This document shows positions 24,761-33,773 of a stretch of 64,000 nt of DNA, piece by piece. The notes beneath the pieces were generated by a model that saw only the letters and a program-made list of their open reading frames with translations, was not told the DNA's origin and did not search any database. Source of the stretch: Anaerolineaceae bacterium (GTDB taxonomy: Bacteria; Chloroflexota; Anaerolineae; Aggregatilineales; Phototrophicaceae); NCBI GenBank assembly GCA_002702065.1, contig NZXX01000004.1, positions 131,748-195,747 on the forward strand. The letters are read 5' to 3'. The first letter of the stretch is position 1; each line of letters starts with the position of its first letter. Both the position numbers and the translations under genes were made by a program.

Positions 24761-25966
24761 CTATTCACCTATATGCCATATTTTTAACAAACCACTGCTT
24801 GCGCTCCATGAAGCAAAGTTACTTCCATCAGGACTAAAAGTTGCGTCAAACACATCCTCGTGAGTAACCTCAGAAATCAAGTTTCCTGTTTCAATATCCC
24901 AAACATTTACTCGATCATCATTCACAGAGATCAACAAAGTATTATCTGTGTTGATGGCACGCATGATTTCCTTTTGATCCAGTTCAAGTTCCAATACCCA
25001 TGTTTGGTCGGTCACAATATTAAATAGATGAACCGTGCTGTTATTTGTTATTTGAGCAAATACATCACCATAATGTCGTCGTGCAAAGTCAATATCTAAT
25101 GGGTTGTCATAAGTTTTCTGAACTGTAAAAGACTTTGTATCTATAACATGAAGACCAATCAGATCATCAATCGCCAGCAACTCGCCAGTATGATTGAGCG
25201 TCATATCCGTAATCGGTATCCCAACACTACTTTCGAAAATTTGCCCGTCATCTTGTGGGTTGTTGACAACCAAGCTCCAGACATGGACTTTTGCATCCGA
25301 ACCGCCAACATACAGTGTTCCACTATCAGGAGAAAACACAGTCACGAATGCATAAGCTTGCGCAATTGCCGAAACCCTTTCCCCGGTCTGCACGTCGACA
25401 ATAATCACTTGATTATTTTCAGAGACAGGAAATACGCTTCCATCAACAATTGCCAGAAACAGCCCATCGGAACTGAAGGTAATATCAGAAACCAAATTGC
25501 CATTCAACATGTTTGACCAGACCTGCTTCCCCGTCTCAACATTCCACAACCGCACCGTGCCATCCTCGCTGGCGGAGGCTAAATGCAGACCACTGGGTTG
25601 AAACTCAAGTAAGACTATTTGATCGGTATGTCCTCTAAGAGCAAACAACCTCTCAAAATTTGACATACTCCAAACCTCAATTGCATTATCCAGCCATTGC
25701 TGCCTTTCGTCCTCACTCCACAGGTCCATACTGGCTTCATAGCGTTTGAGTGTGACAAAATATTGACTATTTGGACTAAAAAGCACAGTTCTTAAGGACC
25801 GCGTGTCAATTTGCAGAGATGTCAGTGCCTCAGCTTCCAGTGCTTGTTGCGCTCGGATCAACGATGAAGCAACGTTATATTGATTTCCCAATATTCCAAA
25901 TAAAGCCAAGATGAGAAAAAGGAAACTAAATTTCCCATCTTCTTTCAACACTCTTAGCCCATTCAC
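24761..25966 (-). CDS. Membrane-anchored WD40-repeat (beta-propeller) protein
   Basis: 401 aa with a GTG start. The N-terminal hydrophobic helix is [15 protein letters not shown]. Repeated WD-like units include [30 protein letters not shown] and LLKIWHI. The DNA is clearly lower in GC than its flanks. Confidence 0.8.
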
Positions 25967-28363: not shown

Positions 28364-28858
28364 TTACCCGCGATAACTCTGTTTCAGATACGCGATTAAC
28401 CCACCGGCTTCAACAATCCCTGCGACCGATTCCGGCAAGCGCGGAAACGTAAAGGTTTGCCCGGCAGCCGTGACAACCCCCTGCTCCATATCCAGCGCAA
28501 TTGAATCGCCCGTTTCGACCAGCGGCAGCACCTGCGGGCATTGAATCACCAGCAAGCCGCTGTTGATGGCATTGCGATAATAGATGCGGGCAAACGACGC
28601 CGCGATCACCGCCTTCACCCCCGCCGCGACGAGGCAGGTCACAGCCTGTTCCCGGCTGCTGCCATTGCCCCAGTTGCGCCCGGCCACGATCACGTCACCC
28701 GGCTGCACCGCCTGTGCAAACTGCGGGTCGAGGTCTTCCAGCGCATACCGCGCCAGCTCTGCCGGGTCATGGCTGATGGTGTAGGTATACTTCCCGGCGA
28801 AGATCAGGTCGGTGTTGATATTGTCGCCATACGTCCAGACTCGATGTGTCGTCGCCAT
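28364..28858 (-). CDS. Homoaconitase / 3-isopropylmalate dehydratase small subunit
   Basis: YGDNINTDLI and GRNWGNGSSREQA motifs. The start is the ATG at 28858, overlapping the large-subunit stop by 1 nt (TGATG). The longer ORF (to 29044) is an artefact. Confidence 0.85.
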   Translation of the reverse strand: MATTHRVWTYGDNINTDLIFAGKYTYTISHDPAELARYALEDLDPQFAQAVQPGDVIVAGRNWGNGSSREQAVTCLVAAGVKAVIAASFARIYYRNAINSGLLVIQCPQVLPLVETGDSIALDMEQGVVTAAGQTFTFPRLPESVAGIVEAGGLIAYLKQSYRG

Positions 28859-30156
28859 CAGGCACGCTCCATGATTGCCGCCGGATGCGCGATGTACCCA
28901 GCGACGGCGCTGGCCGCTACCACAGCCGGGCTTGCCAGATAAATATCGGCATCGCGCTCGCCCATGCGCCCGCGAAAATTGCGGCTGGCACTGCTGATGC
29001 ACACTTCGCCAGGAGCCAGCACGCCCATATGATTGCCCATGCACGGCCCGCAGCCCGGTGTGCCAATCGTCGCCCCGGCAGCCAGCAGGTCCGCCACATA
29101 CCCGGCAGCGACCGCGTCTTCAAAAACTTTGGAGGACGCCGGAATCACCAGCAGGCGCGCCCGAACCTGATGTCCGCGCACCACATCCGCCGCCGCCGCG
29201 ATATCTTCCAGCCGCCCGTTGGTGCAGGTACCGATAAAGCCAAAATCAACATGCTGTGCCGCCAGTTCGGATACCCGTGCCGTGCGATCCACTTCATGGG
29301 GGCAGGACACCACCGGCTCAATCGCGCTCAGGTCGATCATGTGCGATTCGGCATAGGCCGCGTCGGCGTCGGGATACAGCGCCCGGTCACGGAAGTAGGC
29401 GATGCGCTCCTGCCAGCGATCCGGTCGATTGCGGCGCAGCTGCGTTTCGATCCAGTCCCAGGTCACAGCGTCCGGTGCGATGTAGGCGCTCTTGGCCCCC
29501 ATCTCGGCCATCATATTGGGCAGCACCGCCCGCATATCCGGCGATAGAGTCGCCACACCCGGCCCGTCGAACTCCACCGCCATATAATTCGCGCCTTCGG
29601 ATGATAACAACCCGATCAGGCTGATGGTCACATCCTTCGACGATACGCCCGGCGCAAGCTGCCCGGTCAGGGTGACACGCAGCGTTTCCGGCACTCGCAT
29701 CCATAGTTGGCCGGTTGCCCACAACGCCGCGACTTCGGTGCGTCCGATTCCCGCGCCAAATGCCCCCAGCCAGCCGGGATGCGTACTATGACTATCCGAA
29801 CCGAGCAGAATCATCCCCGGCCCGATGACACCTTCCTCACAGTGCACCTGATGGCAGATGCCGCGTCCGACTTCAAAAAAATTCTTTATCCCAAATGCGG
29901 CCACAAACTTCCGAATCTCGGCATGATTCTGGGCATGTTTCGGCGTAGGCGGCGGCACCGCATGATCAAGCGTAATCGCCAGCCGTTCCGGGTACTTGAT
30001 GCGCCCATGCGGCAGTTCGGAGAATATTTTATAGATGGCCGCCGTGTTGTCGTGGCTCATCACCACATCCGGCTCGATATCCAGCACCTCGCCCGGCTGC
30101 ACCTGATCGCGCCCGGCAGCGCGCGCCAGTATTTTTTCAGCAAATGTCGCGCCCAT
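28858..30156 (-). CDS. Homoaconitase / 3-isopropylmalate dehydratase large subunit (aconitase family)
   Basis: 432 aa with GSDSHSTH, IGTCTNGR and CGPCMG Fe-S ligand motifs. Confidence 0.9.
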   Translation of the reverse strand: MGATFAEKILARAAGRDQVQPGEVLDIEPDVVMSHDNTAAIYKIFSELPHGRIKYPERLAITLDHAVPPPTPKHAQNHAEIRKFVAAFGIKNFFEVGRGICHQVHCEEGVIGPGMILLGSDSHSTHPGWLGAFGAGIGRTEVAALWATGQLWMRVPETLRVTLTGQLAPGVSSKDVTISLIGLLSSEGANYMAVEFDGPGVATLSPDMRAVLPNMMAEMGAKSAYIAPDAVTWDWIETQLRRNRPDRWQERIAYFRDRALYPDADAAYAESHMIDLSAIEPVVSCPHEVDRTARVSELAAQHVDFGFIGTCTNGRLEDIAAAADVVRGHQVRARLLVIPASSKVFEDAVAAGYVADLLAAGATIGTPGCGPCMGNHMGVLAPGEVCISSASRNFRGRMGERDADIYLASPAVVAASAVAGYIAHPAAIMERA

Positions 30157-31307
30157 TACGATAGCCCGACCTCCGTTACCACCAGCGTCCCATGCAGCAC
30201 GGCATCGACATCTTCGATTGTGATACGCCGTTCATCTGCCAGTGCTTTGATCTGACGGGTCGCTTCGCGCAGGGTATCTTCGGACAACGCCAGCCCCAAA
30301 CTTGCCGCCCGGTCACGCACCGCGTTCCAGCCCACCAGCCGGTGCGCCAGATCAATGGAACGCCCGATGCCAAAATCCGCCGGGTCAATCGCTTCATAGC
30401 TGGTCGGGTTCTGCAAAACAGCGTTGGTGTGTACGCCCGCTTTATGGTGAAAGGCGGTGCGCCCGGTAATCGGCGTATTGAACGGAATCTCGATGCCGAC
30501 TTTTGCGGCAACAAGCTGCTCGACTTCGCGCAGCATGGTCAGGTCATATTTGCGCACCAGATCGCGATTGATCGTGTACAACCGTGCAATCAGCCCGCCG
30601 AGCGACGTGATGCCGTTGCGTTCGCCAATGCCCAGCACGGTGGTGTCGATATGAGTCGCACCAGCTTGTAGCGCACACAGCGCATTGGCGATGGCACAGC
30701 CGCTGTCGTTGTGCCCATGAAACTCGATGTCGCAATCGACCGCCTGACGCAAACTGCTGATCAGGTTATAGGTGCGCATCGGGTCCGCAATGCCGACTGT
30801 ATCCGCCACGCCAACGCGGTTGACCCCTTCCAGGTCCATCGCGCGGTATACGGTAAAAACATCGGCCAGATTACTGCGGAACGTATCTTCCGTGCTGAAA
30901 CGCGTTTCGATGCCCTGGCTTTTGAGCCAGACCACGATCTCGCGGCTGGTTTCGATGATCTCTTGCAGGCTGCGCCCATGACTGTACTGGCGCATGTAGG
31001 CCGATGTGCCGATATAAATATCGACTCCATCCACGCCACAATCCACTGCCAGCCGGGCCTCATCCATGCGCGCACGAATATGGGTAAGCAGGCGAAACTG
31101 ACGTGGCATCCGCGCAATCGCCCGCAGGTCTGCCTCGCTTTTCGGGCTGGCAATCGGCGTGGTCAGTTCCAGATATTCGACGCCGAACGCATCCAGCGCT
31201 GCCGCGATTTCCAGTTTGTCTTCCGTCGAGAAGTGTCCACCCTCGAATTGTTCACCTTCACGCAGGGTTGATTCGATGATATTGAACCCGGCAATTTGAT
31301 TTTGCAT
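30156..31307 (-). CDS. Homocitrate synthase (AAA lysine pathway type; LeuA/NifV family)
   Basis: IIESTLREGEQF, EFHGHNDSGCAIANA and VLGIGERNGIT motifs. From memory, it is close in length and layout to Thermus-type homocitrate synthase. The start is at ATG 31307 (MQNQIAGF). Confidence 0.85.
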   Translation of the reverse strand: MQNQIAGFNIIESTLREGEQFEGGHFSTEDKLEIAAALDAFGVEYLELTTPIASPKSEADLRAIARMPRQFRLLTHIRARMDEARLAVDCGVDGVDIYIGTSAYMRQYSHGRSLQEIIETSREIVVWLKSQGIETRFSTEDTFRSNLADVFTVYRAMDLEGVNRVGVADTVGIADPMRTYNLISSLRQAVDCDIEFHGHNDSGCAIANALCALQAGATHIDTTVLGIGERNGITSLGGLIARLYTINRDLVRKYDLTMLREVEQLVAAKVGIEIPFNTPITGRTAFHHKAGVHTNAVLQNPTSYEAIDPADFGIGRSIDLAHRLVGWNAVRDRAASLGLALSEDTLREATRQIKALADERRITIEDVDAVLHGTLVVTEVGLS

Positions 31308-31397
31308 GCATCCCTCTACTTTCGATCGTGGCAAAATAAAAGCCGCTTCCAGCAGTCCGGATAGCGGCAGGCAGCAGGCACAGCACACCTATCCAGA

Positions 31398-31448
31398 CTA
31401 TGGGTCCGGCTGCTTGCTGCACTTCGTCTTATTTTCAAAAATGGTCAT
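31398..31448 (-). CDS. Candidate lysine leader peptide 2 (16 aa, MTIFENKTKCSKQPDP)
   Basis: My own translation. GGAG lies 7 nt upstream of the AUG. There are three AAG Lys codons. The last sense codons (CCG GAC) form the 5' arm of the anti-antiterminator hairpin. Confidence 0.5.
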   Translation of the reverse strand: MTIFENKTKCSKQPDP

Positions 31449-31530
31449 TCACACGCTCCGAAAACAAAAAAACCTGCGCGGTAGTCCGGGCAGGTTCTGT
31501 TCTCTCGTCAGACAAACGAAAAAACCCGGA

Positions 31531-31584
31531 CTAGGTGTCGGGCCAGGTCTTCTTCGCCTTCTTGCTGAACATCGAACGAATCAT
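31531..31584 (-). CDS. Candidate lysine leader peptide 1 (17 aa, MIRSMFSKKAKKTWPDT)
   Basis: My own translation. There are four AAG Lys codons within five codons. The stop codon sits inside the first hairpin. The SD is weak. Confidence 0.45.
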   Translation of the reverse strand: MIRSMFSKKAKKTWPDT

Positions 31585-31826
31585 GATAGCCTGTTCTGTT
31601 CACTTTGAACGACAATAGCATACTCAACTATTGGTCAGGATGCTAGCAGCAATTTTATACAAAGTTTGTTGTGCAGTTTGCTGACTGCCCGTAAGGTACG
31701 CGAAAGTTTGAATGTGATAGGAATAATGCGAAATAATAAGCCGCTTTCAAACGGCCTGAACCTTGCGAAAAGCCAGACTATTTGTGACCGCGCCAGCCAT
31801 TCGCGCTTCAGCCATACTGGCGCTGT

Positions 31827-33773
31827 ATGTTGTCTCGAAAGGAGCACCTCTTGAAAATTTTCGTCCCTGGCCGCATCTGCCTCTTTGGTGAACACTCAGA
31901 CTGGGCCGGGGGTTATCGTCGCATTAATTCGGACATCGAAAAAGGACACGCCCTGATCGTTGGCACCAACCAGGGCATCTATGCAGACGTCGCCCCCCAC
32001 CCTGACAAACTCATCCTCACCTCCACTGCCCCTGATGGCACCATCAGCGAACCTTACGAAATCCCGATGGAACTGGATACGCTGCTGGAAGAAGCCCAGC
32101 GCGGCGGCTTCTGGAGCTATATCGCCGGGGTTGCCTATCAGGTGCTGACGCATTACCACGTGCGCGGGCTGGTCATCAACAATTATGCAACCGATATGCC
32201 GGTCAAGAAGGGCTTGTCGTCCAGCGCGGCGATCTGTGTGCTGACCGCGCGCGCCTTCAACCGGGTTTATGACCTGAAGATGACCACACGCGGCGAAATG
32301 GAAATGGCCTATCAGGGCGAGATCGTCACCCCATCGCGCTGCGGCAGGCTCGACCAGGGCTGTGCGTTCGGTGACCGCCCGGTATTGATGACCTTCGATG
32401 GTGACCGGCTGGAAACCCGCGAACTGCGCGTGACTGATGATGTTCATCTGGTCATCGTTGATCTGCACGCCCAGAAGAATACAATGGAAATTCTCGCCCG
32501 GCTCAACCGCGCCTACCCGTTTGCGGATAACGATATTGAACGCGGCGTCCAGAACCTGCTCGGCCCACTCAACAGCGAACTGCTGGACAAAGCCATTGAC
32601 GCGCTGGAAAACACCAACCCCCAGCAGCTCGGCGCGCTCATGGTTGAAGCCCAGGCGCTGTTCGACCAGTATGCCACACCCGCCTGCCCCGAAGAACTCA
32701 CGGCCCCGGTGCTGCACAAGGTGCTGAATTATGAGCCGATCAAACCCTATATCTGGGGCGGCAAGGGTGTTGGTTCGCAGGGGGATGGCACCGCCCAGTT
32801 CATCGCCCGCAGCGTAGAGGATCAGCAGACAATCATCGACATCATCGAGCGTGATCTGGGGATGTCGTGTCTCAAACTGACGATTCACGCCGGGGCGCAG
32901 GTGCGCAAGGCCGTGATCCCAGCCGCCGGTTTTGGCACGCGTCTATTCCCGGCGACCAAAGCCACCAAGAAGGAACTATTCCCGGTCGTGGACCGCGACG
33001 GCATTGCCAAGCCTGCCATCCTCATCATCGTCGAGGAAGCGCTCGAAGCCGGGCTGGATGAAGTCTATATCATCGTCCAGGAAGAGGACTTGCCGGATTT
33101 CCGCGAGTTCTTCAACGTGCAGGTGTCCATCGAAAATTACAACAAGCTTCCACCCCACTTTCAGGATTATTCGCGTCGCTTGCTGGAGATGGGCCGCAAA
33201 GTCAAGTTTATCGTGCAGGATAAGCAGCAGGGCCTGGGCCACGCCCTCTACATGGCGCACGAGGCCATCGGCAACGAGCCATTCCTGCTGATGCTGGGCG
33301 ACCACATCTACCGCAACAATGGCGACCGTTCCTGCGCCCGTCAACTGCTCGACGCCTATAACCAGCACGGCACCAGCGTCATTGGTTTACGGCGCACCCC
33401 GGAAGACCAGATCGCCAACTTCGGCACGGTGACAGGCCGCTGGATCGAACCGGGCGAACTGCTGCACATTACCGAGTTTGTGGAAAAACCGGCGCTGGAA
33501 TATGCCCGGATGAACTTGCGTGTCCCCAGCCTCGGCGATGACGAGTACCTGACCGTGTTCGGCCAGTACATCATCAAGCCGCAGATTTTCCAGTACCTTG
33601 AGGAACATATCGAAAACAATGTGCGCGAACGGGGTGAATTCCAGCTGACTTCGGCGCTGGACCGGCTGCGGCGCGAGGATGGCTTCATGGGGCTGATGAT
33701 GGACGGCCAGCGCTTCGACATCGGCCTGCCAGATTATTACCTCGAAACGCTGCGCAACTTTCGCGAAGGGTAA
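31827..33773 (+). CDS. Fusion protein: galactokinase-like GHMP sugar kinase (N) + GalU-like sugar-1-phosphate nucleotidyltransferase (C)
   Basis: The N-terminal half has GRICLFGEHSDWAGGY (galactokinase-type motif I) and PVKKGLSSSAAICV (GHMP motif II). The C-terminal half has KAVIPAAGFGTRLFPATKATKKELFPVVD and LLMLGDHIY, which are GalU/NTP-transferase-like. The true start may be the TTG at 31851, after AAGGAG. Confidence 0.85.
   Translation: MLSRKEHLLKIFVPGRICLFGEHSDWAGGYRRINSDIEKGHALIVGTNQGIYADVAPHPDKLILTSTAPDGTISEPYEIPMELDTLLEEAQRGGFWSYIAGVAYQVLTHYHVRGLVINNYATDMPVKKGLSSSAAICVLTARAFNRVYDLKMTTRGEMEMAYQGEIVTPSRCGRLDQGCAFGDRPVLMTFDGDRLETRELRVTDDVHLVIVDLHAQKNTMEILARLNRAYPFADNDIERGVQNLLGPLNSELLDKAIDALENTNPQQLGALMVEAQALFDQYATPACPEELTAPVLHKVLNYEPIKPYIWGGKGVGSQGDGTAQFIARSVEDQQTIIDIIERDLGMSCLKLTIHAGAQVRKAVIPAAGFGTRLFPATKATKKELFPVVDRDGIAKPAILIIVEEALEAGLDEVYIIVQEEDLPDFREFFNVQVSIENYNKLPPHFQDYSRRLLEMGRKVKFIVQDKQQGLGHALYMAHEAIGNEPFLLMLGDHIYRNNGDRSCARQLLDAYNQHGTSVIGLRRTPEDQIANFGTVTGRWIEPGELLHITEFVEKPALEYARMNLRVPSLGDDEYLTVFGQYIIKPQIFQYLEEHIENNVRERGEFQLTSALDRLRREDGFMGLMMDGQRFDIGLPDYYLETLRNFREG

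Follow-up and report, generated by a model that had tools for sequence, protein, structure and literature searches.

Two lysine leader-peptide attenuators predicted to act in series ahead of the homocitrate synthase operon of an uncultured Chloroflexota bacterium

Can one operon be governed by two copies of the same amino acid attenuator, placed one after the other in a single leader? The question is raised by a 64,000 nt stretch of contig NZXX01000004.1 (assembly GCA_002702065.1, positions 131,748 to 195,747), here called the window, from an Anaerolineaceae bacterium (Chloroflexota, Anaerolineae) that is known from metagenome assemblies alone. On its minus strand lies the operon hcs–hacA–hacB, which encodes the first steps of lysine synthesis by the alpha-aminoadipate (AAA) route. 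Directly 5' of hcs is a leader of approximately 300 nt, in which a reading made from the letters alone (the sequence-only reading) had seen two lysine-rich mini open reading frames (mini-ORFs), L1 and L2, each followed by the alternative pairing segments of a transcription attenuator. Our analysis points, with a probability of roughly 0.78, to both modules being functional lysine attenuators that act in series on one hcs–hacA–hacB leader transcript.

When the minus strand was read, the coordinates and peptides of L1 and L2, their numbers of AAG codons and the GGAG 7 nt before the AUG of L2 were found to be exactly as claimed. L1 has AAG lysine (Lys) codons at positions 8, 9, 11 and 12, hence four in five consecutive codons, and L2 has three, at codons 7, 9 and 13. 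Relative to the 3.2% Lys of the neighbouring genes, both are enriched (binomial P = 0.0017 for L1 and 0.013 for L2). The proposed segments 1:2, 2:3 and 3:4, and the GC hairpin with its U-run, are present in both modules, and the terminators and antiterminators fold beyond chance (Table 1).

Each module has every property of a ribosome-mediated leader-peptide attenuator that can be examined in a sequence. The 5' leader contains, before the first structural gene, a short ORF that has a start codon and a ribosome-binding site and is rich in codons for the amino acid that the operon makes, the remaining peptide being unconserved. An intrinsic terminator, formed by a GC-rich hairpin and a U-run, stands between the mini-ORF and the structural gene. 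A 2:3 pairing overlaps the 5' arm of this terminator, such that the two are mutually exclusive, and the end of the ORF takes part in a 1:2 pairing. The geometry is also appropriate, as a ribosome at the regulatory codons would mask segment 1 and leave segment 2 exposed, and one that has reached the stop codon would mask segment 2. The gap from the U-run of T1, the terminator of module 1, to L2 is only approximately 10 nt and holds the L2 Shine–Dalgarno sequence, with no promoter or gene between the modules. The single leader carries two complete sensor and terminator units, both of them Lys-rich.

In the mechanism that we propose, RNA polymerase would transcribe the mini-ORF and a ribosome would translate it. 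When Lys-tRNA is scarce, the ribosome would stall at the AAG codons, the last of which is 3–6 codons 5' of the stop, and would cover segment 1, which is formed by the Pro-Asp codons. Segment 2, which starts from the stop codon, would then be free to pair with segment 3, and as this antiterminator consumes the 5' arm of the terminator, polymerase would read through. When lysine is plentiful, a ribosome at the stop codon would cover segment 2, allowing the 3:4 hairpin to fold and transcription to end at the U-run. If there is no translation, the 1:2 hairpin would form, and 3:4 would again fold and cause termination at the U-run. Polymerase would have to pass first T1 and then T2, the terminator of module 2, and a new ribosome would have to load at the L2 Shine–Dalgarno sequence right after T1. 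Read-through would then approximate the product of two decisions, giving lower basal expression and a steeper response to lysine.

A resemblance of this kind might arise by chance, if two unrelated terminator-like hairpins and two random small ORFs happened to fall within one long intergenic region. Hairpins and short ORFs are frequent, and a simple terminator scanner found three terminator-like sites in a 1.2 kb region, little more than the 1.3 ± 1.0 of shuffled versions. That scanner detected only part of T2 and missed T1 owing to its bulged stem, while RNAfold and a covariance model recovered both. Against a chance origin, the terminators and antiterminators of both modules were each matched by none of 200 dinucleotide shuffles, with z-scores reaching from -3.7 to -5.1. 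The minimum-energy fold of the whole 335 nt leader contains both T1 and T2 (z = -3.5). The 1:2 hairpin of module 2 has an energy of -8.0 kcal/mol (z = -2.55) and that of module 1 an energy of -15.3 kcal/mol (z = -1.65), a figure that includes pairing between GCGAAGAAG and the adjoining U-run. In both modules the antiterminator is more stable than the terminator, and the 1:2 and 3:4 hairpins combined are more stable than the antiterminator alone; as modelled, the energetics of both are those expected of a classical attenuator. Segment 2 favours the segment 3 of its own module (-17.6 versus -10.5 kcal/mol and -19.2 versus -14.6 kcal/mol), and the two modules therefore appear to be insulated from each other.

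The U6 run that follows the 1:2 hairpin of module 1 is conserved, and can pair with the GCGAAGAAG Lys codons (region 31516..31560), which may contribute to a bias for AAG over AAA. The sequence-only reading had counted three terminators in the leader. A third is doubtful, as this U6 run more likely marks a pause site, which may couple transcription to translation.

To find relatives of the leader, species-representative genomes were scanned with the homocitrate synthase (HCS) protein, which returned 80 loci, all from Anaerolineae, Phototrophicaceae or Aggregatilineales metagenome-assembled genomes. A metagenome scan with HCS returned a further 80, and the hcs loci were searched by script for Lys-rich mini-ORFs followed by a hairpin and a U-run. 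A protein database search added 12 more contigs from independent samples, 11 with two modules and one with a single module. Including the window, 20 complete two-module leaders were found at HCS identities of 84–91%, and two more are partial because they are cut by contig ends. Those from these two scans (L001, L002, L003, L005, L006, L007, L082 and L083, with L004 and L081 partial; HCS 84–90%) have the modules in the same order. All of the complete two-module leaders retain the in-frame Lys codons, the position of the stop relative to segment 2 and both terminators. Mini-ORFs of the form ..KKAKK..PD., orthologous to L1, are present at every complete two-module locus and at the single-module loci that resemble module 1, and K-x-K-xx-K mini-ORFs orthologous to L2 were found across the two-module loci, where the position equivalent to that before L2 is purine-rich (GGAG, AGGA or GGGG). 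A second tier, at 80–84% HCS identity, has one module that is like module 1 (L008–L018, L020, L022, L084 and L085). L171 also has a single module. The distinct single-module leaders number 13; L009 duplicates L008 and L085 duplicates L018. Altogether, mini-ORFs were found in 34/34 loci analysed, and the whole layout is kept in 33 distinct independent loci.

At HCS identities below approximately 80% (L019, L023–L080 and L086–L091; hcs at ~3001 or 2501), no separate leader was found and another coding sequence ends approximately 20 nt 5' of hcs; the regulatory element of these larger distant clusters, if any, would lie beyond the flanks compared. Apparent terminators approximately 195 nt 5' of hcs in distant loci were discarded as false positives, as they are inside the upstream coding region that ends approximately 20 nt before hcs. 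In two metagenomic loci with 55% HCS identity (L153:2269-2389 and L158:2128-2248), a Lys-rich mini-ORF lies approximately 110–250 nt 5' of hcs. The leader peptides are MLTTFAKQIKRNNKPGIRSG and MMIISVQQLKCAKKPDQMSG, and in both loci the mini-ORF precedes a strong terminator that includes eight U. Thus, lysine leaders before hcs are not confined to this clade.

Because MAFFT alignments A2 and A3 had shifted some 3' arms, module 1 was re-aligned with a covariance model, R1, to give a structure-aware alignment of 22 sequences (A4). The T1 helix is 97.8% paired in these, with double changes at three pairs. For module 1 and the single modules together, the form that combines 1:2 and 3:4 is 94.7% paired (29–61% in slid controls) with double changes at five pairs, and the 2:3 helix is 90.1% paired (24–49% in slid controls). 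The 1:2 helix (columns 34–39 with 51–57 of A4) is paired in 89% of cells. In module 2, the terminated form is 90% paired and includes 10 double-change cells, a number reached in 0/500 shuffles, and the 2:3 helix is 90.4% paired compared with 18–40% in slid controls. T2 has compensatory changes at four pairs, and RNAalifold independently predicts it together with the 1:2 hairpin of module 2. Shuffle z-scores of the 1:2 and 2:3 duplexes were uninformative for the GC-rich single-module group. An alignment-free test, in which the duplex energy of a leader's own segments is compared with values for segments from other genomes, revealed co-evolution of the terminator arms (3:4) in both modules (0/2000 permutations each) and of segments 2 and 3 in module 2 (2/2000).

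The covariation that had been suggested as a check was therefore found in the terminators of both modules and in the 2:3 pairing of module 2, and not in the 2:3 pairing of module 1, which has an invariant core. Related genomes do keep the Lys codons and the complementary segments, as 20 complete two-module leaders with approximately 90% pairing, compared with 18–61% in slid controls, attest. The proposal that attenuator logic is duplicated here in tandem is supported by the same leaders, by the extent of pairing and by the Lys enrichment. With the layout kept in 33 loci and covariation present, the comparative data effectively refute a chance resemblance, to which we give almost no credence.

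A more serious possibility is that the terminators are real and conditional, and that the signal is something other than ribosome-sensed Lys-tRNA, such as a protein, a small-molecule-binding RNA or general translation efficiency. The mini-ORFs themselves speak against this. Of the leader codons in the initial set of 31 modules, 19.4% specify Lys, a 6-fold enrichment over the 3.2% of eight neighbouring genes, and the AAG:AAA ratio is 99:7, compared with 56:45 in the same genes. Across 54 modules, AAG triplets number 172 in the frame of the ORF and only 9 and 13 in the other two (22 out of frame); the ORFs were chosen for Lys content, which introduces some selection bias, but this could not yield such a ratio. 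Lys is the sole conserved residue of the leader peptides apart from the terminal codons that form segment 1, and the N-termini vary freely. The stop codon changes identity (TAG in 26, TGA in 21 and TAA in 7 of the 54) and is nonetheless always at or next to segment 2. In 46/54 modules the stop follows the last Lys codon at a distance of 3–7 codons, and 37/54 modules are preceded by a Shine–Dalgarno-like tetramer. Lys enrichment, AAG in frame and a stop that tracks segment 2 are properties of translated regulatory ORFs, and the product of the operon is lysine.

Known RNA sensors were also sought. A permissive cmscan of 30800..32300 against 4227 Rfam families returned Leu_leader as the sole match, at 18.5 bits (gathering threshold 50, E = 0.76), and a gathering-threshold Rfam scan of 20 distant loci returned no riboswitch, T-box or known leader. 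On the strength of these scans, the lysine riboswitch (L-box, RF00168), the T-box and the amino acid leaders in Rfam were ruled out. The sub-threshold Leu_leader match spans module 1 end to end (31466..31567, minus strand), which probably reflects a shared attenuator architecture and not homology.

Two observations lean towards a different signal. One is that folding at equilibrium with a ribosome mask discriminates poorly for module 1, as described below. The other is a 20 bp palindrome, TGCACAA-N6-TTyGTGCA, kept in 23 leaders approximately 10 nt 5' of a conserved promoter-like element, so that a protein regulator probably also acts at the locus. The palindrome is perfect in L163, L164 and L166, degenerate in the window (TGCACAACAAACTTTGTATA), and kept also at loci with a different upstream gene. 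It is a candidate operator, and suggests an additional DNA-binding regulator of hcs besides attenuation. In an alignment of the 23 leaders, the T, A and T of the -10-like box are invariant (columns T-A-T..T-A...T), and a -35-like yTGGnn block, TTGGCA in relatives, lies 18 nt 5' of it in all. Both boxes persist at loci with another gene upstream (L162 and L169). Transcription is likely to start near 31610, approximately 26 nt 5' of the L1 AUG, and a conserved promoter-like element in this position fits transcription of both mini-ORFs. A match of a sigma-70 promoter scanner at 31750..31723 was set aside in favour of this element, as it is not conserved. Weighing both sides, we consider a signal other than Lys-tRNA to be quite improbable, and return to sensing by a translating ribosome.

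Ribosome positions were modelled by masking the mRNA up to 13 nt beyond the A-site codon. For module 2 of the window, the equilibrium probability of the terminator is 0.04 if the ribosome is stalled at the last Lys codon, compared with 0.99 if it is at the stop codon. For module 1 and many of the single modules this procedure did not discriminate, because their terminators are very stable. When transcripts ending before segment 4 were folded, all 31 modules tested had a more highly paired terminator 5' arm with the ribosome stalled than with it at the stop, and in module 1 of the window the 2:3 antiterminator is the minimum-energy fold with the ribosome on the last Lys codon and absent with the ribosome at the stop.

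How did the leader come to hold two modules? Model R1, built from module 1, matched nothing in the 64 kb window except module 1 itself (119 bits) and, over its full length, module 2 (23.2 bits, E = 0.015); the same model matches 24 related loci. Aligned directly, the two modules share 71 identities in 128 columns (z = 4.4), and module 2 would seem to have arisen long ago as a copy of module 1 and to have diverged since. The single modules share with module 1 the promoter block and the KKAKK / CCUGCCCGG signature. It is therefore module 1 that is orthologous to the single module, and module 2 that is additional. In a neighbour-joining tree of HCS, which is a quick distance tree only, the two-module genomes are paraphyletic, with single-module genomes (the 1B clade with L010, and L014) nested among them. 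This pattern is most simply read as a single old duplication, after which module 2 was lost at least twice, in the 1B clade with L010 and in L014.

This history bears on another explanation, that only one module works and the other is a decaying relic of the tandem duplication, which persists by chance or acts only as a constitutive partial terminator. Module 2 is missing from several related lineages (the 1B clade, L010 and L014) in a pattern like secondary loss, its 2:3 pairing is weak in L004, L006, L007 and L083, and module 1 is without 2:3 covariation. Against this, in 20 leaders with HCS identities down to 84%, neither module has lost its in-frame Lys codons, its start and Shine–Dalgarno-like sequence, its stop at segment 2 or its strong terminator, and neutral sequence would not retain all of these. 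The arms of the terminators co-vary in both modules (0/2000 permutations each), and the invariance of the non-coding core of module 1 over the same divergence implies purifying selection. On balance, a single working module is unlikely, albeit less so than a different signal, and two functional attenuators in series remain the preferred interpretation.

Several points weigh against that interpretation. The core of module 1, GUCCGGG / CCCGG, does not vary (GUCCGGG and the adjoining U-run are nearly invariant in the whole M1-type group), leaving its 2:3 helix with almost no support from covariation. As the core never varies, the support for this helix is conservation, and in the comparison of cognate and non-cognate duplexes co-evolution of segments 2 and 3 of module 1 went undetected (210/2000 permutations). 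With the ribosome on the last Lys codon of module 1, equilibrium folding still favours the terminator in many genomes, and the model thus needs kinetic, co-transcriptional trapping, as for trp; the truncated-transcript test that bears on such trapping is partly trivial, since the longer mask removes pairing partners. The loss of module 2 in some lineages that is indicated by the HCS tree suggests that it is dispensable. Where the 2:3 pairing of module 2 is short or weak, which in addition to the four loci named above is the case in L165, the second module may be weaker or decaying. Finally, from an anatomy, conservation and covariation that were observed directly, we infer the start of transcription, translation of the mini-ORFs, ribosome stalling and the response to lysine.

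The two modules could also do more than repeat one another. Module 1, in which there are two adjacent Lys-Lys pairs and the hairpin with its U-run may serve as a pause or third stop site, and module 2, in which the Lys codons are isolated, might be triggered at different degrees of Lys-tRNA depletion. That they form a graded two-threshold device, and are not merely redundant, is a speculative extension that we think improbable. Since AAG is used almost to the exclusion of AAA (99:7), the switch might depend on a single tRNA-Lys isoacceptor. A trans-acting role has been described for the rhizobial trp attenuator RNA rnTrpL (PMC12612679), and by analogy the presumably abundant RNA terminated at T1 (~145 nt), or its peptide, might act in trans.

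Table 1. Positions in the window of the leader elements and surrounding genes
Feature	Position	Strand	Sequence and remarks
Leader ORF L1	31531..31584	-	ATG 31584, TAG 31533..31531; encodes MIRSMFSKKAKKTWPDT
Module 1 segment 1	31537..31542	-	CCCGAC (L1 Pro-Asp codons); pairs with segment 2
Module 1 segment 2	31516..31533	-	UAGUCCGGG (31533..31525) then UUUUUUCGU; starts at L1 stop; partner is segment 1 or 3
Module 1 segment 3	31482..31490	-	CCCGGACUA; pairs with segment 2
Module 1 antiterminator	31482..31534	-	CUAGUCCGGG : CCCGGACUA, 2:3 helix around small spacer hairpin; -23.9 kcal/mol, z = -5.1
Terminator T1	31459..31497	-	GAACCUGCCCGGACUACCGCGCAGGUUU + U-run to ~31459; hairpin 31497..31470; -15.5 kcal/mol, z = -4.9
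L2 Shine–Dalgarno	31455..31458	-	GGAG; directly 3' of T1 U-run, 7 nt 5' of AUG
Leader ORF L2	31398..31448	-	ATG 31448, TAG 31400..31398; encodes MTIFENKTKCSKQPDP
Module 2 segment 1	31404..31409	-	CCGGAC; competes for segment 2
Module 2 segment 2	31389..31399	-	AGUCUGGAUAG; pairs with CUAUCCGGACU
Module 2 segment 3	31354..31364	-	CUAUCCGGACU; pairs with segment 2
Module 2 antiterminator	31353..31401	-	long 2:3 hairpin AGUCUGGAUAG.. : ..CUAUCCGGACU; -21.8 kcal/mol, z = -3.7
Terminator T2	31333..31368	-	GCCGCUAUCCGGACUGCUGGAAGCGGC + UUUUAUUUU (to 31333); hairpin 31368..31342; -16.6 kcal/mol, z = -4.4; ends ~25 nt 5' of hcs ATG
Promoter-like element	31617..31646	-	-35-like CTAGCA 31646..31641, 18 nt spacer, -10-like TATGCT 31622..31617
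20 bp palindrome	31656..31675	-	candidate operator
hcs, homocitrate synthase	30156..31307	-	ATG 31307; protein begins MQNQIAGFNIIESTLREGEQ; TIGR02146
hacA, homoaconitase large subunit	28858..30156	-	NCBIfam TIGR01343/NF001614
hacB, homoaconitase small subunit	28364..~28861	-	NCBIfam TIGR02087; Pfam Aconitase_C
hcs–hacA–hacB	28364..31307	-	
Divergent 5' neighbour	31827..33773	+	648 aa
WD40 beta-propeller gene	24761..25966	-	401 aa

The product of hcs matches the NCBIfam model TIGR02146 at 424.7 bits (cut-off 413.55). The genes that follow the operon on its 3' side are convergent, on the plus strand. As the 5' neighbour of hcs is divergent, the 520 nt gap between them serves two divergent promoters, and no upstream minus-strand gene requires a terminator there. 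This neighbour encodes a fusion of a GHMP-type sugar kinase with a GalU-like nucleotidyltransferase, is functionally unrelated to lysine, and is divergent from hcs in 9/12 of the extra contigs, making this a conserved neighbourhood. Further away, and unrelated to the leader, a gene for a WD40 beta-propeller protein sits among sugar-metabolism genes (GFO/IDH/MocA oxidoreductases, a xylose-isomerase-like TIM barrel protein and an amidohydrolase).

Leader-peptide attenuation is a textbook mechanism that has been documented almost entirely in Proteobacteria and Actinobacteria. According to a genome-wide survey of 2010, leader peptides had not been shown outside these two phyla, and the survey itself added histidine leader peptides in Firmicutes (PMC2965389). 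The leaders described here would add a well-conserved lysine attenuator family in Chloroflexota, in a clade whose members are known solely as metagenome-assembled genomes. They would also add a natural, evolutionarily maintained tandem of homologous attenuators that sense the same amino acid through the ribosome. In the literature searched we found no lysine leader in Chloroflexota and no natural tandem of leader-peptide attenuators for the same amino acid, which is not proof of absence. As one- and two-module leaders, including apparent secondary losses, stand before orthologous operons, they offer a natural series on whether serial attenuators sharpen or deepen a response. The element is absent from Rfam, and the motif is ready to be offered to annotators as a covariance model. 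That an attenuator of ordinary logic has been doubled into a series, and the pair retained over a clade of uncultured Chloroflexota, is, as a conclusion drawn from comparative sequence data, well supported.

Each module has the full feature set of the classical attenuators of Escherichia coli and Salmonella (trp, his, leu, thr, ilv and pheA), with regulatory codons just 5' of segment 1, a stop at segment 2 and an intrinsic terminator before the first structural gene. The differences are the effector, lysine, the host, a member of the Anaerolineae in the Chloroflexota, and the presence of two serial modules instead of one. Nor is there significant sequence or covariance-model similarity to the leaders in Rfam. 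A close functional parallel is the lysine leader-peptide attenuator of the AAA lysine cluster of Thermus thermophilus, reportedly described by Tsubouchi et al. in J Biol Chem in 2005, and said to consist of a single mini-ORF and a single attenuator. As reported, it has the same pathway, the same first gene (homocitrate synthase), the same effector and a Lys-codon mini-ORF with alternative structures. Thermus belongs to the Deinococcota and not to the Chloroflexota.

Three tandem cases were found in the literature searched, namely the Salmonella mgtCBR leader (PMC3641672), ermB (PMC8274638) and synthetic tandem attenuators. ermB is controlled by translational attenuation with two leader peptides (PMC8274638). 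The mgtCBR operon is described as having a long leader with two short ORFs, the translation of which is anticipated to affect the formation of stem-loops (PMC3641672). To that extent it is like the leader of hcs: a single long leader holds a pair of short ORFs, and each of these governs a set of alternative stem-loops on which transcription of the coding region depends. The mgtCBR ORFs are reported to be unrelated to each other and to respond to different signals, one to ATP and the other to proline or charged tRNA-Pro. In contrast, the Chloroflexota modules appear to be homologous copies that respond to the same amino acid, each with a canonical intrinsic terminator.

Tandem thiamine pyrophosphate (TPP) riboswitches and leaders with multiple T-boxes are known in Firmicutes and Actinobacteria, and the tandem described here would be their ribosome-sensing counterpart. 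Like them, it has two complete sensor and terminator units for the same ligand in series, from which multiplication of read-through and a sharper response would be expected. Unlike them, its predicted sensor is a translating ribosome and not an RNA aptamer or a tRNA-binding RNA, and a second ribosome would load between the two terminators.

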